From NCBI GenBank assembly GCA_964628355.1, contig CAZVNB010000033.1, positions 4,965 through 68,964 of the forward strand: a DNA stretch of 64,000 bases, in the 5' to 3' direction. The notes below the pieces were generated by a model that searched no databases, was not told where the DNA came from, and was given only the letters and a program-made list of their open reading frames with translations. The position numbers and the translations under genes are program-made. This DNA is from an uncultured Planctomycetia bacterium. GTDB taxonomy: Bacteria; Omnitrophota; Gorgyraeia; 2-02-FULL-51-18. The first letter of the stretch is position 1. Each line of letters starts with the position of its first letter. Shown piece after piece: positions 3,837 to 47,709 of the stretch.

Positions 3837-4798
3837 TCCTTGATCTTACTTTCTTGGCCTAGAGCTTCCTCAATTCTCGACAAACTCGCGGACGGCTTTG
3901 TCAGCCGAATCACTTCGTCCACCAGCTGCCTATAGTCTTTGGCGCCGTTGCAATAGGGATTGAAATCAAAAATACACTGACCATGAGAAGAGGATTCCGC
4001 CAACGTGATATTCATCCGGATCACGGTTTGAAGCATTTTTTCTTTGAAATAGTCTTTAAGCTGATCCAACATCTCGCGGGTCAATTTCTTCCGCATGTCC
4101 ACGATGCATGGAAGAATGCCGAGAATTTCCAGTTCCGAATTAATGCGGTCTCGAACAACCTTGAGCGTCGAAAAAAGTTCCTTCATTCCTTCTAATGAAA
4201 AATAATGAGCTTGAATCGGCACCAGCACGCATTGAGCGGCCACCAGCCCGTTGATAGTCAAAAGATTCAATGAGGGCGAGCAATCCATTAAAATATAATC
4301 GTAAAAGCGAATATGGGCATTGAGCATTTTCCAAACACTGGTGCGAAGAAGCCTCTCACGGCCGAGAAGATCGGCAATCTCCAGCTGCGCTCCGGTCAAC
4401 AACGAGGAAGCAGGCGCAATATCTAAATTTTTGACGTAGGTCGGTACAATCGCTTGCTCGAGGTCCAGATTATTCACCATCACGTCATAAATTGAAGAAG
4501 AAAATTGATCCACATTGACGTTTAGACCCAAGGAAGCATTCGACTGCGGATCAAGATCGATGATGAGTACCTTGAAATTCTTGCGAGCCAAACCTGAGGC
4601 TAGATTAATGCAAGTGGTGGTTTTTCCAACCCCTCCTTTTTGATTCACGATGGCAACGATCGTCGTCTTATTCGCGGGCTTATCGTTGAGAATATCGGCT
4701 GATAGTTGGCGACCGTTCAAGCGATAGCTTTCCAGTGAATTTCGCGTGAAGAAAGCTTTTAAATCCTCAAACATGTTAGATCCCCCAAACACGGCCAT
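3833..4798 (-). CDS. ParA/MinD-family P-loop ATPase
   Basis: Deviant Walker A KGGVGKTT, DLDPQ motif and ParA-like length (321 aa). Its start overlaps the stop of the upstream MerR gene. Confidence 0.8.
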   Translation of the reverse strand: MAVFGGSNMFEDLKAFFTRNSLESYRLNGRQLSADILNDKPANKTTIVAIVNQKGGVGKTTTCINLASGLARKNFKVLIIDLDPQSNASLGLNVNVDQFSSSIYDVMVNNLDLEQAIVPTYVKNLDIAPASSLLTGAQLEIADLLGRERLLRTSVWKMLNAHIRFYDYILMDCSPSLNLLTINGLVAAQCVLVPIQAHYFSLEGMKELFSTLKVVRDRINSELEILGILPCIVDMRKKLTREMLDQLKDYFKEKMLQTVIRMNITLAESSSHGQCIFDFNPYCNGAKDYRQLVDEVIRLTKPSASLSRIEEALGQESKIKE

Positions 4799-37295: not shown

Positions 37296-38543
37296 TTATT
37301 TTCCTGAATAAATTTTAGTAATAATGGAAACGGCCTGGCCGTTAAAACCAAAAGCATTTGTCATCGCATATGACATCTGTTTTTTAAGCGCATTTCCAGA
37401 AACTATTTGAAAGCCCCAGTCACGCTCTGATTTCGAAAAATTTGCAACCGCCGGAATCATTTGATGCTGCAGTGCAAGTGTCGACACAATCAAATCCAGC
37501 GATCCCGCCGAAAAGCCGGTAAAACCGGTAATGGGTTTGGATGCGCTGACAAATAAATTTTTACCGGTGCCATTAAAAACCTCGGAAATCGCCTGCGCCT
37601 CACGTCGATCCTCGTCTTTTAAACCGAGACCCGTTGCCTGTAAATAATGAACATCCGAAGCCTTAAGACCGGCCTCTTTTATCGCCGCTTCCATTGCTTT
37701 TTTTCTTCCACAGTTCGATGCAGAACCAAATCCCATCACTTCCGCGTAAATTTTCGCGCCTCTTTTTTTGGCATGCTCCAGCTCTTCCAAAAGCAAAAAA
37801 CCGGCACCCTCGCCCACCACAAACCCATTTGCTGCGGCATCAAATGGACGAAAATTTGCGCTACCCGTGTGATTGAGAGCTCCCAGCAGCTGATACTGCG
37901 ACATCCCGACGGGATTCACTTTGGATTCGGCTCCGCCGGCCAACATGAGATCCGCACCTCCTCGCTCGATAATGCGAAAAGCTTCTCCCACCGCCTGCAA
38001 TCCCGCCGAAGCTCCCGTCGTAATGGTGTTGTTCATCCCCTGCAAATCAAACAAAATAGAAATATGACAAGCAGACATGTTTGGCAAATATTTGAGCAGC
38101 CACAGAGGAAATAACGTTGAAAGTCCGCTGTCTCCGAACCGCGCCAGATTCATTTTTCCTGAATCATCCAGCGAATTTTGAACGCTGTAGGCCAACTCAT
38201 CCAACTCGTGATTTAAAACACCCGATCCTACGATCACGCCAAAACGTTCATGATTAAAAGACCAGGTCTCTACGTTGGAATCATCGATCGCAAGGCGCGC
38301 GCCGGCCACAGCCAATTGAATATCGCGCGCCATGACCTTGAGAGCTTTCTTCTGTGTCACGTATTTTTCAGGGGAAAAGTCGCGAATCACGGCCGCCAAA
38401 ACTTTGCGTTCGTACGATCCGCCAAATTCATCCAAAAAACTTATCCCGGAGCGACCTTCGATTGCCGCGGCCCAAAGAGCGTCAGTTCCTTCTCCAACAG
38501 CCGTGATCGCTCCCAATCCCGTAATAACCACGCTTTTTTTCAA
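37296..38543 (-). CDS. KAS-like protein lacking the catalytic triad (chain-length-factor-like partner)
   Basis: Thiolase fold, but ITTGASAG replaces TACSS (Cys to Ala), LQATGLG replaces HGT (His to Gln), and the second His is absent (ITGFTG). Confidence 0.8.
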   Translation of the reverse strand: MKKSVVITGLGAITAVGEGTDALWAAAIEGRSGISFLDEFGGSYERKVLAAVIRDFSPEKYVTQKKALKVMARDIQLAVAGARLAIDDSNVETWSFNHERFGVIVGSGVLNHELDELAYSVQNSLDDSGKMNLARFGDSGLSTLFPLWLLKYLPNMSACHISILFDLQGMNNTITTGASAGLQAVGEAFRIIERGGADLMLAGGAESKVNPVGMSQYQLLGALNHTGSANFRPFDAAANGFVVGEGAGFLLLEELEHAKKRGAKIYAEVMGFGSASNCGRKKAMEAAIKEAGLKASDVHYLQATGLGLKDEDRREAQAISEVFNGTGKNLFVSASKPITGFTGFSAGSLDLIVSTLALQHQMIPAVANFSKSERDWGFQIVSGNALKKQMSYAMTNAFGFNGQAVSIITKIYSGK

Positions 38544-39022
38544 ATGACGATTCCTTCACTTTTTTTTGCGATTTTATAAACGTCATAGTGGTTTAAAAAA
38601 TGATCGTTAAAAACCACTGTTTTGTCCGATGAACCCGTTAAGGGGTCCATCGTGACCAAAAGCATTCTCGCCGTCGCGATACATTCGCTCCCCTGCTTTA
38701 CCTCACCGGAAATCCAAGCGCCTTCTTCACGCTCATTTTCGATGCGCGCCACAATCGTCAATTGACAAGGCGGTAGCACTGTTTTTTCGAAGCGCGCCAT
38801 CTCTATTTTTGCCAAAATAACCTCTTTTTTGAAATCAGTTCCCAAACCAAATAAAACGCCGCCAGCCTGCGCGATCATTTCAATAAAGAGTGGTTCCGGC
38901 ACACGCGGATGTCCCGGTTCATGTTCAGCAAAAAAATCCTCATTCCCATCAAAAGCTTTGATGGCTCTTGAAAAATCACCTTTCTTGAGCACCTCGAAAC
39001 GATCGACTAAATCCCAGCGCAT
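38540..39022 (-). CDS. Hotdog-fold 3-hydroxyacyl-ACP dehydratase (FabA/FabZ-like)
   Basis: HEPGHPRVPEPLFIEMIAQAG resembles the FabZ His-containing motif; 160 aa. Confidence 0.6.
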   Translation of the reverse strand: MRWDLVDRFEVLKKGDFSRAIKAFDGNEDFFAEHEPGHPRVPEPLFIEMIAQAGGVLFGLGTDFKKEVILAKIEMARFEKTVLPPCQLTIVARIENEREEGAWISGEVKQGSECIATARMLLVTMDPLTGSSDKTVVFNDHFLNHYDVYKIAKKSEGIVI

Positions 39023-39399
39023 GGGGCCTGCTCACGGGGATAGCAATAGGCAATGACATAAAAACGGCTTTTGGCGAACAAAATTTCAAGCGGGTTTTTT
39101 CTGGAAATCTTTTTGTGAAATATTCCTTTTAGGCGAAGAGAAAATCGGTTTTTTCCGGGTAAAATTTCAATGCACTTAAATCCCGAAACGCCCATCCAAG
39201 AAACGCCAAGCGCTTTAAACACGGCCTCTTTCGCAGACAAAATCATCGCAAGTGCTTGATAAGGTTTGTTGGAGGTTTCTACGTACGTGACTTCGGCAGA
39301 ACATAAAAAACTACCGAGTTTTTCGCGATGTGCTTTATAAAACGTCTTGGCTTTCTTCCATTCAAACATATCCACCCCAAGGGGCCAGGCGGCATTCAT
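39007..39399 (-). CDS. Holo-ACP synthase / 4'-phosphopantetheinyl transferase (AcpS-like)
   Basis: ~125 aa; SAKEAVFKALG matches the AcpS motif. Confidence 0.55.
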   Translation of the reverse strand: MNAAWPLGVDMFEWKKAKTFYKAHREKLGSFLCSAEVTYVETSNKPYQALAMILSAKEAVFKALGVSWMGVSGFKCIEILPGKNRFSLRLKGIFHKKISRKNPLEILFAKSRFYVIAYCYPREQAPCAGI

Positions 39400-39406
39400 T
39401 GGAAAA

Positions 39407-39802
39407 CTACTTGTGGGCGATTTGGAGCTTTCCCGAGAGATAATCCACGATCATACCGACCGTGAAAAGATTGCCCAGGTTGGACACTTGCGGATGTTTC
39501 GTGAATTCGTCCCAATTGACATTGGACATTTTTGGTTTCAATTCTTCGATGCCAGCCGGCGTGACAAGACCATTTTTTACGAAACGCGCATCGGTGAGAA
39601 TTTTTTCCGGAAAAAGTTCTCCTTTAGGTATTTTGATTTTGAACGCTTTTTCCAAGCGAAATACGATATCAAGAAAGTCGATGGATTCCGCGCCCAGGTC
39701 CTTAATCAATGAAGAATTTAAAGCTATTTTTCCTTCATCGACTTTTAGCGCTTGTGAAATTATGCTCTTGACGTTTTTAACAATGTTATCTTTTTCATGC
39801 AT
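39407..39802 (-). CDS. Acyl carrier protein with a C-terminal extension
   Basis: DLGAESIDFLDIVFRLEKAF (phosphopantetheine Ser in a DSL-like context); 131 aa. Confidence 0.65.
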   Translation of the reverse strand: MHEKDNIVKNVKSIISQALKVDEGKIALNSSLIKDLGAESIDFLDIVFRLEKAFKIKIPKGELFPEKILTDARFVKNGLVTPAGIEELKPKMSNVNWDEFTKHPQVSNLGNLFTVGMIVDYLSGKLQIAHK

Positions 39803-39833
39803 ATCCGTTTCTTAAGACTCCTTCTTTAATTCT

Positions 39834-40292
39834 TTAATTCCGCGCCGCAACCAGTGAAAAACTGGCCGTGAGCACCCGGCCAATGGGATTTCCACTATCG
39901 CCCATCAAATCCATGCGACCTTCCAAAAATGCCCGAGGTCCTTCTTTCTTCATCAATCGCGCGAAAATCCGCAACAAATTACCTGGTTTTACAAATTGAC
40001 CGAACTTTACCTCATGCACCTGTTCCAACCTCAGGAGCTGCGTGTCCGAGTTTTCCCAACCACCCAGAAGAAGCATGGCTGCTTGTTTGAGCGATTCCAA
40101 GAGTAAAACCCCTGGCATCACCGGAAAATTTTCGAAATGATCTTGCAGGAATTCTTCATTTCCTTTCAACGTGAAAAAAGCCGTAATACTCTGGTTCTTT
40201 TCTACTTCCGAAATTTTATCAATAAAAGAGAATGCACCCAAATGTTTTTTTATCCCTGAAAAAAGAGCAATTTTAACTCCGTAATATAGCAT
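39834..40292 (-). CDS. FabZ-like 3-hydroxyacyl-ACP dehydratase
   Basis: HFENFPVMPGVLLLESLKQ is the classic FabZ active-site motif. Confidence 0.75.
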   Translation of the reverse strand: MLYYGVKIALFSGIKKHLGAFSFIDKISEVEKNQSITAFFTLKGNEEFLQDHFENFPVMPGVLLLESLKQAAMLLLGGWENSDTQLLRLEQVHEVKFGQFVKPGNLLRIFARLMKKEGPRAFLEGRMDLMGDSGNPIGRVLTASFSLVAARN

Positions 40293-40328: not shown

Positions 40329-41619
40329 GGTGACGTCAATCAAATTGGGTAAATTGCTTTAAGGGTTTGTTCTTCCAGTTGTTGTTTAAGTGCGTAAAGA
40401 TGGCGTAAATGATGCGTTCACTTGAGGCGATATTCGAGAAGCAGGAGAACACTCTCGTTCTACGCCTAACCTCTCGGAAGGCCCGTTCAATGGCGTTGGT
40501 TGTCCGGATTTTGATCTGGTGCGACTTCGGACAGTCCAGGAAGGCGAGCATCTCTTCCAGGTCCTTTTCAAGACAATGAACCGCTTGGGGCGCCCTCTTC
40601 TGCCAGTCCCTCTTCCAGGCCTTGAACTCGGCGACGGCCTTGAGTCGGTTTGGTGCTTGGTAGATTCCTCGCGCCTGGTCAATCAACTCTTCTTCGTAGG
40701 CCTTCTTGCAGTAATTGGAGACATTCCTGAGCTTGTGAGCCCAACAGCGTTGGATCTTGGAGTGAGGATAGACGAGTTCAGCGGCTGTTTTTAAACCGGC
40801 TGATCCGTCCATGGCGATGAGTTTTAGGTTCTCCCCTTTAAGGCCTCTCCGATAAAGAGAATTCAAAAGAGACTCCCATGAAGCTTGGGACTCCCCCTTG
40901 GCGGTCATGAACCCGATGAGTTTCCTTTCTCCAAAGACTGTGATGCCGTAAGCTACAAGGATCTTTCGGTTGTGATACCTGCCGTTGTAGAGGGTTTTCA
41001 AGGTAATGCCGTCCAGGATGAGATATTGGTATTCATCAAGAATGGGCGCTCTGTGGAATTGTGCGACTTTTTTATCCAGTCTCTTTGTGATATTGGAGAC
41101 CGTGCCGTGGGAGACTTTTGTGTCTAGGAGCTTAGAGATGGCCTCTCCCACACGGCGGGTTGAGACTCCGGCGAGGAAGATGCCTTCTATCGGGTCTAGC
41201 ACCAGATCCTGATGGCGGTGGTATCTTTTAAAGACTCTTGTTTTAAATTCAGCTCCACGGGCTCTTGGGACCTGAATGTCTTCGACTAGACCAAACTGGG
41301 TCACAAGACCACGGGAGTAATAGCCATGCCGGTAGACGGAGGCCTTGCGGTCGTAAGGAGCGCGTTTTAGTTCCTGGGTCATCTCTTCGGCCATGGTTGA
41401 TTCCATCAGTTCCTTCAAGAGTGTTTTTACCTTTTCTTTGGCATTTTCCTGCCAGAAGTTTTCTTTGACCTCTACCCACCAATCTTTTAGAATCTGGGAT
41501 TGTGGGAGTGTTCTTCCGTGTGCTTCCATGGGCGTATTCCTCCTTTGTGTGATAACTAGAAGGATACGCCCTTTTCTTTTCCTACCTACTTGAATTTACC
41601 CAATTTATTTTACGCTACC
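40329..41619 (-). mobile_element. IS256-family (Mutator-type) insertion sequence, ~1291 bp
   Basis: A single transposase ORF flanked by imperfect ~27-bp terminal inverted repeats sharing the core AAATTGGGTAAATT (40342-40355 and 41594-41607 as the reverse complement). No clean target-site duplication detected. Confidence 0.8.
40336..41529 (-). CDS. IS256-family transposase (Transposase_mut)
   Basis: 397 aa; DDE region with conserved LILDGITLK ... MDGSAGL ... CWAHKLRN ... AIERAFREVRRR blocks. Confidence 0.9.
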   Translation of the reverse strand: MEAHGRTLPQSQILKDWWVEVKENFWQENAKEKVKTLLKELMESTMAEEMTQELKRAPYDRKASVYRHGYYSRGLVTQFGLVEDIQVPRARGAEFKTRVFKRYHRHQDLVLDPIEGIFLAGVSTRRVGEAISKLLDTKVSHGTVSNITKRLDKKVAQFHRAPILDEYQYLILDGITLKTLYNGRYHNRKILVAYGITVFGERKLIGFMTAKGESQASWESLLNSLYRRGLKGENLKLIAMDGSAGLKTAAELVYPHSKIQRCWAHKLRNVSNYCKKAYEEELIDQARGIYQAPNRLKAVAEFKAWKRDWQKRAPQAVHCLEKDLEEMLAFLDCPKSHQIKIRTTNAIERAFREVRRRTRVFSCFSNIASSERIIYAIFTHLNNNWKNKPLKQFTQFD

Positions 41620-42140
41620 TTTTCTGTAGAATTATCGAAGAACATCCAGCTGTCAACTTTATCTTTATAGATAAGTTGAAAATTATCGAGCGATCTTTGG
41701 AATCTCCTTCTCACGTCTTTTTCCGGAACGTTATGGCCTCCTTTTGAGACTCTCTGCTTTATTCGAGCCAGAGAAAGATGGGCATCAGGCACCCATAGAA
41801 AAAATAAAAAAATCTGATACCCCTCAGCCCTAAGCTGCGAAAATAATCGAGCGTTGGTTTTACCTGAAAGAGTGGTTTCAAACCCAAAATCCTTTAAGTG
41901 CGTAGCATATTCACGTATTCTCTTCAGAACTGTCCGACACGCCTGCATCGCTTCTCCTTCTGGGGAAAAGGGAGACAGCCCTTGGGCAACAAAATCTGCA
42001 TTAATAAAATTCGGGCAATGCACATAACTATGCAAAAACTCTTTAGCAAAAGTAGTTTTGCCCGAGCCGTTCGGGCCAGCGATGATGTAGAGGTTTTTAG
42101 GGTTCAAGTATTGCGTCCAACCTGTTCGATACTTTCCCAT
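41610..42140 (-). CDS. Zeta-toxin / COG4185-like P-loop kinase; the 3' end lies inside the IS terminal repeat
   Basis: Walker A IIAGPNGSGKTT with INADFVAQ downstream. The last codons (..VA-stop) are encoded by IS right-end sequence (41610-41619). Confidence 0.6.
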   Translation of the reverse strand: MGKYRTGWTQYLNPKNLYIIAGPNGSGKTTFAKEFLHSYVHCPNFINADFVAQGLSPFSPEGEAMQACRTVLKRIREYATHLKDFGFETTLSGKTNARLFSQLRAEGYQIFLFFLWVPDAHLSLARIKQRVSKGGHNVPEKDVRRRFQRSLDNFQLIYKDKVDSWMFFDNSTEKVA

Positions 42141-42500
42141 ACAATAGCGTAGGCCGCGTTCCATAATCGACTGAAATTATCATATTCATCCTTATTCGAA
42201 GGTAGCCCTATTTGTGTAAATGATGATTTGAGGATCTCTCCCTTGTAACTGACTTCTATCGATATCATGGACGCATCCAGGCCCACATAATCAAGTTTCC
42301 CCGTCTTTTGAAGCTCAGTCAGTTTTGCATAAACATCCGAGACAATTCTCTGGCCTTCACCAAACGGTTTTATTGACACTTCCGTAACTTTCCCTGTACG
42401 AATGCGGCCCGGATAATAACTTACTTTAACATAATCCTCACCAGCCCAGACTGACCTGCAAACTAATAAAAAAATGACGACTAAAAAACATTTCTTCATG
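42104..42500 (-). CDS. Secreted hypothetical protein
   Basis: Start ATG 42500 with GGAGA RBS. Signal peptide MKKCFLVVIFLLVCRSVWA. The listed 5' extension is leader sequence. Confidence 0.5.
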
Positions 42501-42514
42501 TTTTTCTCCTGGAA

Positions 42515-42710
42515 TTTAAAAAATAAACACCCCGCCTCCAAACTGGAAGCGAGGCGTCTTCTTTATTTTGTTACGCTTAACTACCCAGATTTGGGGTGCG
42601 AATGAGCGTCCAAATTGGCTCCCCGGCTTTGGACGCCATTCGAACCACAGAATCCCGCCAGGAAGTGGTGCTTTTGATCAAACTCTATAGGGTCCGTCGA
42701 AAGGGTCTTT
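42515..42710 (-). repeat. Repeat family A, copy 1 (full length): a structured ~190-bp element with a long hairpin and a terminator adjacent to the downstream gene's RBS
   Basis: Near-identical to 44786-44920 and to 46545-46636 (truncated). Hairpin 42599-42642: ~16-19 bp stem, 13-nt loop. Minus-strand terminator 42527-42557 (10-bp GC-rich stem) followed by UGUUUAUUUUUU. Confidence 0.8.
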
Positions 42711-42748
42711 TAGTATCTTTGGGGTGAAAATCCAATAAAAAGCGAGCT

Positions 42749-43189
42749 TTACCTTGCAACAGGAGGAGCTGACGAAGTCTCTTGCCTTTTTCCTAGTTCT
42801 TTTCTTTGAGTCTTAGTATTATTTACAGCCACCCACACAAGACCGCCCAAATCTAAAGCGGCGACAATTCCGGCAGTAGCGGGATTACCGTTAATTGCAA
42901 TTTCCTTGGCAACATACAAACCAAAAATCGCGATCGAAGTCCCTGCTATCATTCCCAAATAGGACTTCACAAGGTTTGAATTAACAACCTTGTTTTCTAG
43001 GCCCATTCTGTGATCGGATTGCTTCTCAGCCATGCGAATTATTCGTTCGGCCGAGCCGGGAACAATATTATTATACTGCTGTAGAATCTGTGGAGCCGGA
43101 ATGGGGCCGCTGATTTCCGTATAGGTTGCTACGCGTGCTGGCGGAGGATTGCTGGGATTATTTCGGGCAGGGGGATTATTATCTGGCAT
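42749..43189 (-). CDS. DUF2335-like membrane protein
   Basis: Pro-rich N-terminus, conserved PAPQILQQYNNIVPGSAERII.MAEKQ block, and two C-terminal TM segments. Confidence 0.45.
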   Translation of the reverse strand: MPDNNPPARNNPSNPPPARVATYTEISGPIPAPQILQQYNNIVPGSAERIIRMAEKQSDHRMGLENKVVNSNLVKSYLGMIAGTSIAIFGLYVAKEIAINGNPATAGIVAALDLGGLVWVAVNNTKTQRKELGKRQETSSAPPVAR

Positions 43190-43442
43190 CCGACGCTAAC
43201 TCTTGAGACGCCAAAATCAAATGATCGCCAACCGATGCCCAGTCGCTGTAAAGAGCTTGATTATCAGCTTCCTGCGGGGTCAAATTTTCATTATAAACAT
43301 CCTGGTTGCCGAGGATATCCAAAACCCTAGACATCCCTTCGGTCAGCGAAGGATTGGCAAACAAACGGCCCGATCTAAAAAACAGTGTGCTATTCATAGT
43401 TATATTATGCCATATGAAAACGAAGGCTGACTAATTAAAAGA

Positions 43443-43471
43443 TCCCGGCTCCACGGGAAGCCGGGGCCAGC
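43443..43471 (-). terminator. Intrinsic-terminator-like hairpin 3' of the 43608-44054 gene
   Basis: Minus strand CCCGGCU-UCCCGUGG-AGCCGGG followed by AUCUUUUAAUU. A related but degenerate sequence lies at 45670-45698. Confidence 0.45.
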
Positions 43472-43607
43472 AAAACACGAGGTCTTGCTGGGATGATGTT
43501 GCAAGCATACCATCCACAACAAAGCTTAGTCAAGAAATTGAGTTTCAAAAAACTGCCTGTGAAAATGAACAAATCGCGTAGGCTGAGAAATTCGTGCCGA
43601 TATCCGC

Positions 43608-44054
43608 TTATTGCTTAATCTCGCTCTTCATCTTTTGTGGGAACTCAGCGATAATCTCTGGTTTCTTAAATAATCTGTAAATATAAAAGAAAATTAGTCC
43701 CATAATGATAAACATTGCCAACATTCCTACCCAAACCACCAAAAGCTTCATATCCACCTCGTGACCAGATTGTTTATTCGTCACTGCAGGGACAACAGTA
43801 GCCAACAAAAACCCAAAGAAACCCAGAATTGCCATGCATATGCTCAAGAAAGATAAGTAGACGAGAGCTACACGCGCAATATTTTTTCGCAATAGAATTC
43901 CCACACCTAATGGCACAAGAATTAGAGGTAAATAAACCCCTCTCAACAACCCAAGTAATCCCCACAAAACGAGTACCCAGCTAATAATATTGATTTTAGT
44001 TTTTGATTTCATAGGGGATCTTTGATACAAGAGAACTTTTATATTTACGTACAA
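43608..44054 (-). CDS. Small integral membrane protein, hypothetical
   Basis: Four predicted TM helices; 148 aa. Confidence 0.4.
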   Translation of the reverse strand: MYVNIKVLLYQRSPMKSKTKINIISWVLVLWGLLGLLRGVYLPLILVPLGVGILLRKNIARVALVYLSFLSICMAILGFFGFLLATVVPAVTNKQSGHEVDMKLLVVWVGMLAMFIIMGLIFFYIYRLFKKPEIIAEFPQKMKSEIKQ

Positions 44055-44700
44055 ATTCCAGAGCTATATTCGCGACGGTTAAACCAATTTGAAATAGATA
44101 TTCATGCACTACCGGTACAATCAGCTTCTGATCTTTTAAAGAGTACTCCATTGTGAGGCTTTCCACCGGAGATCCAAAAACTCCGTGAGTTGAATCTGCA
44201 TGTGCCGCCTCTTGCCCAGCATATCTTTCGATAAGAAATCTCGGTGTGAAACTTCTCATCTTGGGAGTACGGCCTTCGTCAGGAACTTCCCAATCAAGTA
44301 AAAACCCGTTTTCCAGCCACTCACTTAAATCAATGGATGAATATAGTGATTGGCCGTCTTTTTCAGCAAACACAATTGGTAAACGACCTCCGGCTAATTG
44401 GGTAAATAATGCTCTTTTCTTAACTTGTTGGACAATCTTTCCGGTTGTAGAATCCATTTCTGTAATTTGTATAAAGCCGTTTTGATTAAGTTTCATCACA
44501 GAAAATATATCTTTGGTTTCTGCCGCTAATTCAGACATCAGTCCATCACCACTTTGTGATCCAACCAGAACTCTGAGTCTTATTCCGATGTTCTTTACTT
44601 CGTCAAAATTGTGATCGACAGCAAACCTATCGCAACTGTCCAACAATAATTGCGCATGGCTTCTGAGATCTTCTAATCTTTGTTGAAAATCCTTTTTCAT
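43996..44700 (-). CDS. Hypothetical protein
   Basis: ORF. The likely start is ATG 44700 (MKKDFQQRLEDL); the upstream part of the listed ORF overlaps repeat copy 2. Confidence 0.4.
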   Translation of the reverse strand: MKKDFQQRLEDLRSHAQLLLDSCDRFAVDHNFDEVKNIGIRLRVLVGSQSGDGLMSELAAETKDIFSVMKLNQNGFIQITEMDSTTGKIVQQVKKRALFTQLAGGRLPIVFAEKDGQSLYSSIDLSEWLENGFLLDWEVPDEGRTPKMRSFTPRFLIERYAGQEAAHADSTHGVFGSPVESLTMEYSLKDQKLIVPVVHEYLFQIGLTVANIALEFVRKYKSSLVSKIPYEIKN

Positions 44701-44785
44701 TTGATTCCATTTCCTAAGTAAGATACCCGCCCCTAACCGGGAGCGAGGTGTTAAGCATACAAACACAACGTTCAATACTCACTCG

Positions 44786-44920
44786 AACTGGGGTTCGAAT
44801 GAGCGTCCAAATTGGCTCCCCGGCTTGGACGCCATTCGAACCACAGAATCCAGCCAGGAAGTGCTACTTTTAGTCAAACTCTATAGGGTCCGGCGAAAGG
44901 GACTTTTGGTGTCTTTCGAG
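44786..44920 (-). repeat. Repeat family A, copy 2 (core conserved; gene-proximal terminator segment divergent)
   Basis: 44786-44920 aligns with 42592-42708 at >90% identity, including hairpin 44796-44838. Confidence 0.8.
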
Positions 44921-44947
44921 AAACCTTTCACCTAAAAAGAACAGAAA

Positions 44948-45268
44948 TCAAACGAATTGCAAAACCTGCTCGCTTCGCTTTCTATGCACCGCTTTGACTT
45001 TGAAGACAATGCCCAAGACGTTAAGAAACCGGATCAACGTTTCAAGCGTAATGTTTGATCCGTTTTCTATCCTGGCAACCACTTGCTGTTTGATTCCCAG
45101 TTTACCTGCAAGCTGTTTTTGGGTCAGGCCTTTTTTTTCTCTATATTCTACAAGATGTTCTAAAAGCTCAAGCTTTGAGGCTTCAAGCTCTATGCGGGCC
45201 TCTCTTTTCTTATCTTGGCCGATGAGCTTTTTTCTAACTTCTTCGTAACTTTCTCCGATATGTTTCAT
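44948..45268 (-). CDS. higA: HigA-like XRE-family antitoxin
   Basis: HTH_XRE: LTQKQLAGKLGIKQQVVARIENG. Sits immediately downstream of the toxin with a 4-nt overlap. Confidence 0.75.
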   Translation of the reverse strand: MKHIGESYEEVRKKLIGQDKKREARIELEASKLELLEHLVEYREKKGLTQKQLAGKLGIKQQVVARIENGSNITLETLIRFLNVLGIVFKVKAVHRKRSEQVLQFV

Positions 45269-45609
45269 GATAGCGCCTCTCTTTCCAAATAATCTGCTTT
45301 TCTTTTTAAAGCGATTTCAAGCTCTCTTTGCGGTATGTCACTCGTTCTTTTCAAAAAAGCGTGCAGCAATAGAACCTGTGTTCGCCTGTGAAAGCAACAT
45401 AAGATCCTGTTCCGATCAGGCCTAAGTTCATACAAGCCAAGCCCACCTCCAAGGCTATCCGTTATGGGTCTTCTAAGACCAAAACCAAACTGTGCCAACC
45501 TGTCCAAATAGGCGATCGCTTTATCTTGCTGCCTTTTTGGCGCTGAACTTAGATACTCGTGGACAGGAGAATTACCCTTTTCATCCTTGTAGAAGATTAT
45601 TTCAAACAC
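45265..45609 (-). CDS. higB: HigB-like (Gp49 / RelE-ParE superfamily) toxin
   Basis: Gp49-family pattern: FL..L....QAKI..L...G, then GLYELR, then LLHAF.K. Toxin-first gene order is typical of higBA. GTG start with GGAGA RBS. Confidence 0.7.
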   Translation of the reverse strand: MFEIIFYKDEKGNSPVHEYLSSAPKRQQDKAIAYLDRLAQFGFGLRRPITDSLGGGLGLYELRPDRNRILCCFHRRTQVLLLHAFLKRTSDIPQRELEIALKRKADYLEREALS

Positions 45610-45630
45610 TTGTTCTCCGGTCTTATCTCA

Positions 45631-45658
45631 AGTATACAGCATATAAGCTGTATGTCAA
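45631..45658 (-). promoter_or_regulatory. higBA promoter with palindromic operator
   Basis: Minus strand TTGACA, a 16-nt spacer, then TATACT. The spacer contains the perfect palindrome ACAGC-TTATAT-GCTGT, overlapping -10. Confidence 0.6.
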
Positions 45659-45708
45659 GTGGGTAAAAACCCGACTCCACAGGAAGCAGAGGCCAGCACT
45701 TACTTGGG

Positions 45709-46506
45709 CTATTTATTTTCAGGTTCTATCTTTGCCGGTTGAAATACGGTGCCAGGAACGTAGCGATAACCTTGTGGAATTGTCGGAAACTTTTGTTGAT
45801 TGAAAGCCTTAAGCTCTCCCTCGGTGATAACGTGCTTATCAATATCAGGAACGTTAACCTTATTGCTTTCGCGCCATTCCCATTTAAGTTGATTAATGGC
45901 AGTTTCGGCTGCATAGAGAGCGCCCATAAGTTCTTCTTGTTTTTTGGTAATAATCTCCCCGGTGTCGGTATCAAAGATTAGCGTACGATCATCGATCATC
46001 TGAGCCTCAAAGAGAAGCTTATTTCCATAGGACCGAGAAAAACCCAGTATATTTTTAATAACCGTATAATGGCTCTCGCTTGATGACACATTATTAGCAG
46101 ACCCAGCAGTATCCAACGTTGAGTAAGACTTCAGAAGTTTACCGGTTTTGTAGAAGGCTAGCGCGAGTTCTCCCGCTGAGGCTTCATGTCCTCTAGACCA
46201 CGCTCCGGTTTGAACCACACAAACTGTATCAGGACTCGCAGCAAAACCATCAAGAAAAATATTCGGTGAGTACCAATCATATTGGTGCACAAGGAGATCA
46301 TCTTTGTCTGTAACCTGATAAATTTTAGTTTTACCTTTCAAACCATAACTTTCGGCAGGGATTGATTTGGCGTAGAAACCGCCCCATTCGTTCGATTTGA
46401 CATATGGTCGATTACCCGCTTCATCATCAGCAAAAGAAAGCTGGGTTAAAGAAATAGATATTCCAAATACGAAAATAATTGCGAATAATTTTTTCATGTC
46501 AATCAT
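45709..46506 (-). CDS. Secreted hypothetical protein
   Basis: Signal peptide MKKLFAIIFVFGISISLTQLSFA; 265 aa. Confidence 0.45.
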   Translation of the reverse strand: MIDMKKLFAIIFVFGISISLTQLSFADDEAGNRPYVKSNEWGGFYAKSIPAESYGLKGKTKIYQVTDKDDLLVHQYDWYSPNIFLDGFAASPDTVCVVQTGAWSRGHEASAGELALAFYKTGKLLKSYSTLDTAGSANNVSSSESHYTVIKNILGFSRSYGNKLLFEAQMIDDRTLIFDTDTGEIITKKQEELMGALYAAETAINQLKWEWRESNKVNVPDIDKHVITEGELKAFNQQKFPTIPQGYRYVPGTVFQPAKIEPENK

Positions 46507-46544
46507 TAAAATCGATTCCTTAACATTAGACTCCGGAACAATAC

Positions 46545-46636
46545 GCCCCGCCTCTAAACTGGGAGCGAGGCGTCTTCTTTATTTTGTTACGCTTAACTAC
46601 CCCGACTTGGGATGCGAATGAGCGTCCAAATTGGTA
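46545..46636 (-). repeat. Repeat family A, copy 3 (truncated within the long hairpin at the GIY-YIG junction)
   Basis: 46545-46636 matches 42528-42617 (terminator segment plus the left half of the hairpin). Homology stops at ...CGTCCAAATTGG and is followed by the palindrome GATCAAT-CACGTG-ATCGAC. Confidence 0.75.
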
Positions 46637-46640
46637 TCGA

Positions 46641-46916
46641 TCAATCACGTGATCGACTTAAGCTTCTTAAAGAATAAAAATCACCATGAATCAGTGCCAA
46701 CTTCTTGGCGCGACTCCAGCACTTAATCTGTGCTTCACGCTTTTTAGCGTCTACTTTGGATCGATGTTCTTCTTGATAAACCAAGCGAGCGGGTGGATTG
46801 TAGCCGGTATAATGCGACGTGCCTTCTCGATGTTCCCTCAGCCGCCGATTAAGATCGTTCGTTACACCTGTATAAAATGATCCGTCTGCGCATTCTAAAA
46901 TATAAACCGTCCACAT
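46641..46916 (-). CDS. GIY-YIG nuclease-family protein
   Basis: VYILECADGSFYTGVTNDLNRRLREH is the GIY-(x10)-YIG motif; 91 aa. Confidence 0.75.
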   Translation of the reverse strand: MWTVYILECADGSFYTGVTNDLNRRLREHREGTSHYTGYNPPARLVYQEEHRSKVDAKKREAQIKCWSRAKKLALIHGDFYSLRSLSRSRD

Positions 46917-47190
46917 TGATATTGTCCTTCGACGCGTTCGCTTCGCTCACTTGCTCAGGATGGATTCGGTGGTGAGCAAGGCGGATGGCCAAAAGGCCAT
47001 CCGCCGCGTCGAATCCACTCCACGAGCAGATATCCCAGGGAACCTTAATCTGCTCAAAAAGCACTGTTAAATTTCAAAAAGCACTCAAAAACACCACCCG
47101 ACTTACCCGGGCCAGTCAATTCTCCCACGCCGAAGAGATGGCCGCGCTTTGGAGCGATTCTCCAGAGTTGTTGCGGTGGGTGAAGGTGTC

Positions 47191-47709
47191 TTAAAAAACA
47201 CTATTATAAGGCAACACAAAGTGAGGTTCTTTAGCTTGCCTCCATAAAACCTCGACTGCCTGATTTAACACATTGCTCCAAAAAGTCATTTGACCACTGA
47301 TGTCTTCAATTTGACCGCTTTCGGACATTTTTATCCATACATTGATATTCCTGGTGGATTTAGGATCCAAGATGTAAGGGGCCGGTACAATGGTGAAGGT
47401 GCAAGTATTATCGTTGTTCATGACAAAGTTTTGTATCGTGTTATCCGTCGTTGAAAAAGTTTCGATTTTTAAAGCAACATCCTTCTGTTGGGGAAATGGA
47501 GTCATATAAATATGCTTCCATGCAATCTCGGACTTTCCATCAACATTTCTAATAAAAATATTTGCTATAATCTTAGTCCCTGGCATCTTCCCATTTTCGT
47601 ATACATCTAAATATTCCGTACCACCAACTCCTAAATCATCATGTAAGCCGGCATAAGCACAAGCTGTAAGAGTTAAAAATAATAAAACTACTAACACAAC
47701 GCGCTTCAT
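47191..47709 (-). CDS. Secreted hypothetical protein
   Basis: Signal peptide MKRVVLVVLLFLTLTACAYA; 172 aa. Confidence 0.45.
   Translation of the reverse strand: MKRVVLVVLLFLTLTACAYAGLHDDLGVGGTEYLDVYENGKMPGTKIIANIFIRNVDGKSEIAWKHIYMTPFPQQKDVALKIETFSTTDNTIQNFVMNNDNTCTFTIVPAPYILDPKSTRNINVWIKMSESGQIEDISGQMTFWSNVLNQAVEVLWRQAKEPHFVLPYNSVF

Follow-up and report, generated by a model that had tools for sequence, protein, structure and literature searches.

The locus studied here raises the question of how a gene for a small GIY-YIG nuclease came to lie against a broken copy of a hairpin repeat. The window, that is, the whole stretch of 64,000 nucleotides (nt) that was analyzed, comes from an uncultured Planctomycetia bacterium (contig CAZVNB010000033.1 of assembly GCA_964628355.1), and it carries on its minus strand an open reading frame (ORF) of 91 amino acids (aa) whose end abuts the third, truncated copy of an intergenic repeat. 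The initial annotation of this DNA had described the gene as homing-endonuclease-like, with the repeat as its insertion target. Judged from the comparison with relatives, a compact module of about 380 nt (47021-46641) includes the gene and is a discrete unit foreign to the repeat. We give about an even chance to the reading that this Ssn-type module, of a kind that trails transfer RNA (tRNA) genes, was fused to the repeat by illegitimate recombination at a fragile hairpin within an island rich in mobile elements.

The limits of the module are given by its closest homologue with available DNA, which was found in a groundwater metagenome (L001-L004) and shares 79% protein identity with the window protein. 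DNA homology between the window and L001 is confined to 47021-46643, i.e., to the ORF and about 105 nt upstream of it. The downstream regions of 10 homologue loci are mutually unrelated, and base composition does not distinguish the module from its surroundings.

The upstream part of the module is a structured 5' leader, whose helices are listed in Table 1 together with the other features of the locus. The window leader has a minimum free energy of -47.7 kcal/mol (z=-3.9), and its fold reproduces the three-helix structure (P1, P2, and P3). A covariance model of the leader (R1) covers nine instances, eight of them located directly 5' of a GIY-YIG start codon and the ninth (L006:1832-1956) without an ORF behind it. 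Across these nine, in an alignment fitted to the model, 92.5% of the cells are paired and 13 of the 27 pairs have changed on both sides, against 28-41% of cells paired in a control in which the partners were slid by one to three columns. The leader can also form an alternative helix, named 'a', in which the 5' strand of P1 pairs with a conserved CGAATCCA-type segment in the P3 loop; both competing duplexes are present in 9/9 leader sequences with similar energies, and helix 'a' displays compensating changes (TGGATTCG/CGAATCCA, TGGTTCGAC/GTCGAACCA, CCATTCGAC/GTCGAATGG, TACTTC/GAAGTA, and CACTTC/GAAGTG).

When compared to Rfam 15, the window leader reached the gathering threshold of no family, and the homologous leaders likewise gave nothing. 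A sub-threshold match to osmY (RF03036; full model, 22.7 vs a gathering threshold of 46.9 bits, E=0.055) at 46914-47004 on the minus strand is probably due to chance, since the homologous leaders do not reproduce it. The leader is absent from 80 homologues on viral contigs and thus constitutes a feature of one subclade. Shorter related motifs, often right after a tRNA, were observed in the 100 nt upstream of the GIY-YIG starts in more distant homologues (L010, L011, L013, L015, L016, L029, L056, L061, L067, and L084), for instance ...CACTTCGACnnGCTCAGTGCAAGC... and ...CCTGAGCnnGTCGAAGG..., and the leader may represent one variant within a considerably broader family of motifs. In the literature searched, no paper ties GIY-YIG or Ssn genes to tRNA trailers or to a leader RNA.

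In relatives, the module is found behind tRNA genes. The leader begins one base past the discriminator of a tRNA-Gln(CTG) in L006, L007, and L012, and in L001 it follows directly after a co-oriented Asn-like tRNA split by a group I intron with an HNH ORF. Considering all 81 homologue loci, every tRNA located less than 600 nt from the GIY-YIG gene is on the strand of that gene (17/17), and the density of tRNAs within this distance is 0.19 per kb, vs 0.05 per kb in the rest of the same loci. ARAGORN detected 0 tRNAs in the 64-kb window. The first 1,960 nt of L006 (L006:1-1960) contain, in order, the tRNA-Gln, the leader with its GIY-YIG gene, two small ORFs, and the second leader without an ORF (1832-1956), and degenerate tRNA-Gln 3' ends occur at 514-540, 1184-1210, and 1808-1836, one preceding each small ORF. 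The ORF-less leader is itself preceded by one of these pseudo tRNA-Gln 3' ends, a combination suggestive of rearrangement or of mobility in the vicinity of tRNA ends; no integrase is present within the 3.1 kb of this cassette-like array. The intron-containing Asn-like tRNA occurs at L001:300-925 and at L089:4818-5438, with group I introns scoring 76.7 and 70 bits in Rfam and an HNH-type ORF, and in L089 a different GIY-YIG ORF of 79 aa (4524-4763) is located just upstream of the tRNA.

The ORF described by the initial annotation at 46641-46916 on the minus strand was confirmed, and it is preceded by a Shine-Dalgarno (SD) sequence, AAGGA, at 46925-46929, 8 nt 5' of its ATG. GIY-YIG (PF01541) is the sole Pfam match of the protein (E=6.2e-16, residues 1-72), and the residues Y5, Y15, G17, R25, H29, and E61 are invariant across 26 homologues. 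In a search of the PDB, the nearest solved structures were the UPF0213 proteins BH0048 (1zg2, 5.6e-13) and EF2693 (1ywl, 5e-9). UPF0213 proteins are bacterial Slx1-like minimal GIY-YIG domains, and the Slx1-like lineage is paralogous to the lineage that contains the homing endonucleases (Dunin-Horkawicz et al., PMC1564403). More recently, SsnA of Neisseria meningitidis (cd10448) was described as the founder of Ssn, a family of site-specific nucleases of single-stranded DNA (ssDNA), of whose homologues 71% carry flanking hairpin repeats of 20-50 nt; SsnA cleaves ssDNA about 7 nt 5' of a hairpin stem, not at the loop (Chenal et al., 2025, PMC11893778).

Both the length and the single domain of the window protein agree with the Ssn criterion (about 90-100 aa, without an auxiliary domain). 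As a comparator for SsnA we used a gonococcal gene, obtained by tblastn of PLSDB, which matched two gonococcal chromosomes filed as plasmids. These entries (NZ_CP119142.1 and NZ_CP119140.1) are 2.17-Mb replicons of Neisseria gonorrhoeae with 17 annotated features and are evidently chromosomes. Eight copies of the Neisseria NTS flank the matched gene (the SRM regular expression counts 8), which identifies it as the SsnA orthologue. The window protein is 42% identical to it end to end (BLASTP 2e-16; hhalign probability 98.6%), and by eye its C-terminal helix motif, RE.QIK.W.R.KK.ALI, is nearer to SsnA than to BH0048. The published SRM consensus (HGTCWY N0-2 YYVSBRH N0-5 WNVSBRG N0-2 RNCYNB) had 0 matches in the 64-kb window and, around the 81 homologue loci, one match vs 2.1 expected. 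On these sequence features, the window protein belongs to the bacterial Slx1-like/Ssn type of GIY-YIG nucleases; it has a single domain, retains every predicted catalytic residue, and is probably an active enzyme of this type.

The repeat that the gene abuts has three copies in the 64-kb window, and no others were found there. All three are located between co-directional minus-strand genes. Read in the sense of the genes, copy 1 is composed of a small hairpin, a long hairpin of 18 bp, and a 16-bp terminator-like hairpin with a T-run (42559-42525), the last of which has diverged in copy 2 (44747-44726). The long hairpin has 18 bp with one bulged base in copies 1 and 2 (42592-42649 in copy 1); folded as DNA it reaches -20.4 kcal/mol (z=-5.3), and the RNA fold of copy 1 has z=-4.1. 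Its loop in copy 1 reads ...GCCGGGGAGCCA. An exact-word scan of viral contigs returned L089, in which a genuine intron-containing tRNA ends in ...CCTTGGGAGCCA and is followed by ATTTGGACGCTCATTCGCACC; 29 of 30 nt are identical between the repeat and this segment, which comprises the last 8 nt of the tRNA and its trailer. On the basis of this match, the hairpin loop (...GGGGAGCCA) is similar to an acceptor-3'/CCA end, and tRNA-trailer sequence makes up the distal arm.

Outside the window, the one genome scan made yielded a single related metagenome-assembled genome (MAG), an Omnitrophica (L005), in which two more partial copies occur, with no GIY-YIG gene nearer to them than 8 kb. The 925-nt contig L086, from another metagenome, carries a homologue, 75% identical, of the 265-aa gene located after copy 3, and a repeat right after that homologue which is broken directly past ...GAGCCA, with the opposite arm kept. 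The breakpoints are ...GGTTCGAATGGCGTCCAAGCCGGGGAGCCA|GTCCAAAGGAG in L086 and GAT|TGATCGATACCAATTTGGACGC in copy 3, so that the same loop has been interrupted at both of its edges, once in each of two independent copies. No Rfam family matched the repeat. Its identity as a tRNA or transfer-messenger RNA was rejected, with no ARAGORN prediction in the window and no Rfam tRNA hit at E<=5 in 42400-47300. An integron attC site was rejected by inspection, since the sense-strand GTTAAGC has no complementary partner flanking the hairpin (R''/R' RYYYAAC...GTTRRRY), and no recombinase or IntI was found among the 17 neighboring proteins scanned with Pfam. Copies 1 and 2 were also considered as ORF-less remnants of the leader and rejected, the leader model with filters off giving them 3 bits or less.

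At the junction itself, copy 3 retains the terminator-like hairpin (A, 46545-46572), the tRNA-trailer-like module B, the distal arm of the long hairpin (46610-46630), and a remnant of the loop (46635-46643) that includes the stop codon of the nuclease gene. The comparison with the repeat copy of L005 places the joint at 46643/46644. The initial annotation was right that the homology of copy 3 stops within the long hairpin, namely in its loop; the end that it gave, 46636, is to be replaced by 46634 (...CCAAATTGG) when the copies of the window are compared, and by 46643 when L005:5044-5111 is the reference. As the homology to L005 reaches 46643, the TGA stop codon is repeat-derived loop sequence. 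The loop of copy 3 directly follows the last sense codon of the module, and nothing of the repeat remains on the gene side of that loop. Read on the sense strand, the joint is ...CGTGAT|TGATCGAT..., with a 4-nt TGAT microhomology. A palindrome does span the joint, as had been described, with its arms corrected to TCGATCA/TGATCGA; 1.6% of the 28-nt windows in this sequence contain an equally good one, so that it does not clearly exceed what chance would give. The right arm of the palindrome carries the codons for the S-R-S of a C-terminal LSxSRD* motif (SRSRD* in the window), which is conserved in homologues without the palindrome, such as L001.

The missing half of the repeat was sought upstream of the module, where BLAST found nothing, and the repeat body, when aligned locally with the 90 nt that precede the module, reached a top score of 15, vs 16.6 +/- 2.8 for shuffles. 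A similarity seen there by eye (TTCCTGG..GATTCTG..TGG) was rejected as not significant in the shuffle test. No target duplication was found around the module. With the upstream half undetected, the locus does not constitute a pair of filled and empty sites and has no target duplication. No orthologous empty allele was recovered, the Logan contig L087 ending inside the repeat, and a clean insertion between discriminator and CCA was dropped as an explanation, because copy 3 keeps pre-CCA loop sequence homologous to copy B of L005.

Table 1. Coordinates of the features of the GIY-YIG locus within the 64-kb window.
Feature	Position	Strand	Remarks
GIY-YIG nuclease ORF, 91 aa	46641..46916	minus	ATG-to-TGA, single-domain, predicted Slx1-like/Ssn-type
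Structured 5' leader of the module	46917..47021	minus	common to L001, L007, L006, and L012
Leader helix P1	47013-47005 with 46936-46928	minus	TTCGACGCG pairs with CGCGTCGAA; 3' strand runs into the SD AAGGA
Leader hairpin P2	47004-46995 with 46990-46981	minus	G+C-rich
Leader helix P3	46980-46973 with 46957-46950	minus	CTTGCTCA pairs with TGAGCAAG
Leader helix 'a' (alternative)	47017-47010 with 46968-46961	minus	competes with P1
Repeat copy 1 (full)	42527..42720	minus	intergenic repeat of about 190 nt
Repeat copy 2	44726..44916	minus	intact long hairpin and proximal module; repeat homology about 44777-44916
Repeat copy 3 (truncated)	46543..46643	minus	93% identical to copy 1 over 46543-46634
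Imperfect palindrome TCGATCA (46637-46643)/TGATCGA (46650-46656)	46637..46656		7+7 nt, 6-nt spacer
23-nt element GGTTCCCTGGGATATCTGCTCGT	47022..47045	minus	immediately upstream of the module
Accessory island	40336..47709	minus	about 7 kb, with all three repeat copies; from Pfam scans

We hypothesize that the module, originating from a tRNA-trailing site, was already in the island or was brought into it, and that the junction would be the endpoint of an illegitimate recombination, a deletion or a one-sided fusion, rather than of a clean homing event. The long hairpin probably favored the break, with the TGAT microhomology at the joint, and the module would now borrow the terminator-like hairpin of the repeat as its 3' end. 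By analogy with SsnA, the enzyme most likely cuts ssDNA at a specific structured site. As modeled, the leader most likely works as a translational switch, in which the ribosome site would be free when helix 'a' forms and flanked or occluded when P1 forms, and in the normal setting the module transcript would be released from the tRNA precursor. Several points weigh against this reading. No repeat copy is farther than 4.2 kb from the sole GIY-YIG gene in 64 kb, a proximity that is then coincidence or island history, and the microhomology has only 4 nt. The covariation figures come from nine leaders in an alignment fitted to the model and for that reason lean towards structure, and the leader could act as single-stranded DNA instead of RNA. 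The protein scores 54.7 bits with SsnA vs 52.3 bits with the UPF0213 protein BH0048, scores by which cd10448 and cd10456 are not told apart. Finally, as no orthologous locus was recovered, an insertion followed by the loss of the upstream half must also be considered, with a probability that we place between low and very low.

The interpretation proposed by the initial annotation, in which a free-standing GIY-YIG homing endonuclease recognized the intact hairpin, cut it, and copied itself in, with the palindrome as the mark of the junction, seems to us quite improbable. The observation behind it is largely real, and the part of it that receives support is that a discrete, transferable module, known from unrelated contexts, ends exactly where the hairpin is broken; copies 1 and 2 could then be uncut targets. 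Nevertheless, "inserted" is an interpretation rather than an observation. The second half of the target is missing upstream, no target duplication accompanies the module, and L005 holds repeat copies that have no such gene nearby, results that do not sustain the repeat as an insertion target. The gene does not qualify as homing-endonuclease-like either, with a protein of 91 aa and one domain that lacks a DNA-binding domain and belongs to the Slx1-like lineage, not to the homing-endonuclease/UvrC lineage (PMC1564403). In addition, relatives of the gene sit in unrelated contexts, after tRNAs and never in this repeat, an outcome that the initial annotation had itself named as counting against its reading, and the palindrome is weak and partly coding. 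Another possibility is that the repeat is the recognition motif of the enzyme itself, as NTS/SRM are around ssnA, that the grouping of the three copies near the gene has a function, and that the broken hairpins are by-products of the cutting of hairpin ssDNA by the nuclease. That hairpin repeats flank 71% of Ssn homologues (PMC11893778), that the homology of the protein to SsnA extends over its full length, that all three copies are close to the gene, and that two independent copies are broken at the loop edges all speak for it, but the SRM consensus is absent from the window and not above expectation at the homologue loci, the 79%-identical homologue (L001-L004) has no such repeat nearby, L005 has the repeat without the gene, and the cut made by SsnA falls outside the loop, a few nucleotides upstream of the hairpin (PMC11893778). 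We regard this possibility as unlikely.

Doubtful as well is the proposal that the leader is an ssDNA recognition or mobility site and not a regulatory RNA, the module targeting tRNA 3' ends by nuclease-initiated recombination and thus being a small mobile element that trails tRNAs. The same start just past the discriminator behind different tRNAs, Gln-CTG and the intron-containing Asn-like one, speaks for it, as do the ORF-less leader of L006 after a pseudo tRNA-Gln 3' end and the further pseudo-ends between the small ORFs; P2 is a G+C-rich hairpin with conserved flanks and formally NTS-like, and we infer by analogy that the cut offset of SsnA, about 7 nt, may correspond to the 8 nt from the T arm to the tRNA end on the antisense strand. 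The fixed orientation of the leader, its fixed distance from the start codon, and its pairing with the SD-adjacent segment fit RNA control better, though, and neither a filled-versus-empty pair for any tRNA nor a duplication of the leader on both sides of the gene was found. A broader hypothesis, to which we assign a small probability, would take the leader as a new class of structured element of an Ssn subclade, and leader plus nuclease as a minimal selfish or domesticated module that colonizes the base after tRNA genes, is expressed by tRNA read-through, and is released by tRNA 3' processing. The nuclease would then recognize tRNA-like ssDNA hairpins, the repeat of the window would serve as an off-site target, and copy 3 would represent a product of cleavage or integration that was captured.

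The comparison with known systems places the locus near, and apart from, the Ssn family (PMC11893778). It shares with it the single GIY-YIG domain of about 91-94 aa, the conserved catalytic Tyr/Tyr/Arg/Glu, and the hairpin repeats in adjoining non-coding DNA. It differs in that the SRM/NTS consensus was found neither in the window nor, above expectation, at the 81 homologue loci, and in that the arrangement NTS-gene-NTS is replaced by a multi-helix leader of 100-165 nt on the 5' side only, with a tRNA upstream in relatives. A minimal GIY-YIG domain without auxiliary domains is also common to the UPF0213 proteins BH0048 and EF2693. Escherichia coli YhbQ is a bacterial Slx1-like stand-alone GIY-YIG protein of the same group (UPF0213). 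I-TevI and the Seg proteins of T4 have the GIY-YIG catalytic motif in common with the window protein, and their genes, too, occur in differing genomic contexts; unlike it, they have 200-300 aa, include both a linker and a DNA-binding domain, and belong to the UvrC-related lineage (PMC1564403), and recognizable halves of their targets remain on both sides, which is not the case here. In REP/BIME-RAYT and in IS200/IS605, as here, a small nuclease gene is tied to extragenic hairpin repeats, an analogy of the REP/RAYT type that the authors of the Ssn study themselves draw (PMC11893778), but those nucleases have the HUH fold, and in our locus the protein is linked to the repeat by the position of its gene. 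Genomic islands at tRNA ends resemble the locus in that the loop looks like an acceptor/CCA end, the retained arm like a tRNA trailer, and L006 has pseudo tRNA-Gln ends; in contrast to them, no integrase was present in the stretches examined, and the repeated segment is mostly trailer, not tRNA body. Judged by these features, the locus encodes a predicted Ssn-type nuclease whose associated element and genomic niche differ from those of the described Ssn systems.

The module is immediately preceded by a 23-nt element with an 18-nt core identical to L001:1372-1389. Its alignment score was 38, vs 17.7 +/- 3.5 for shuffles, with 0/1000 as high, and in L001 it is found on the downstream side of the GIY-YIG gene, with its relative orientation reversed. 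The element is conserved more than the coding sequence, and its core, TCCCWGGGA, is palindromic and resembles the tRNA acceptor strand of L001. The accessory island around the module is flanked by a fatty-acid/polyketide-type cluster and by housekeeping-type genes; the cluster (37296-40292, minus strand) comprises a ketoacyl synthase, two FabA-like dehydratases, a phosphopantetheinyl transferase, and a carrier protein. Among the genes of the island are those of a transposase of the IS256/Mutator family, a zeta-toxin-like nucleoside triphosphatase (NTPase), a DUF2335 protein, and a HigB/HigA-like pair, along with lipoprotein-like ORFs without family matches. The transposase gene (40336-41529, minus strand; PF00872, 4.6e-82) borders the island. 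The gene of the zeta-toxin-like/AAA NTPase (41610-42164, minus strand) lies downstream of copy 1, and L005:4608-4742 contains DNA 75% identical to this stretch and placed likewise with respect to a repeat copy, an arrangement from which the repeat, a small ORF, and the NTPase may be a conserved unit. The HigB-like gene (Gp49, PF05973) and its helix-turn-helix antitoxin partner (44948-45609, minus strand) are located between the 265-aa gene and copy 2; since the homologue of the 265-aa gene directly precedes the repeat in L086, this toxin-antitoxin pair looks like an insertion, or else like a loss in the relative.

The junction of the gene with the repeat is real, and it constitutes no demonstration of homing into the repeat. 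Ssn nucleases were described in 2025, and their value as tools depends on pairs of enzyme and site. The locus and its relatives form a clade from which the published recognition motif is missing and in which the gene has a covarying leader of several helices and is placed strictly behind tRNA genes, and the locus offers the leader hairpin, the tRNA-like hairpin repeat, and the 23-nt element as candidate substrates, in addition to a putative regulatory RNA. The main value of the finding lies not in the junction but in the covarying leader and in the link of this predicted nuclease to tRNA genes.

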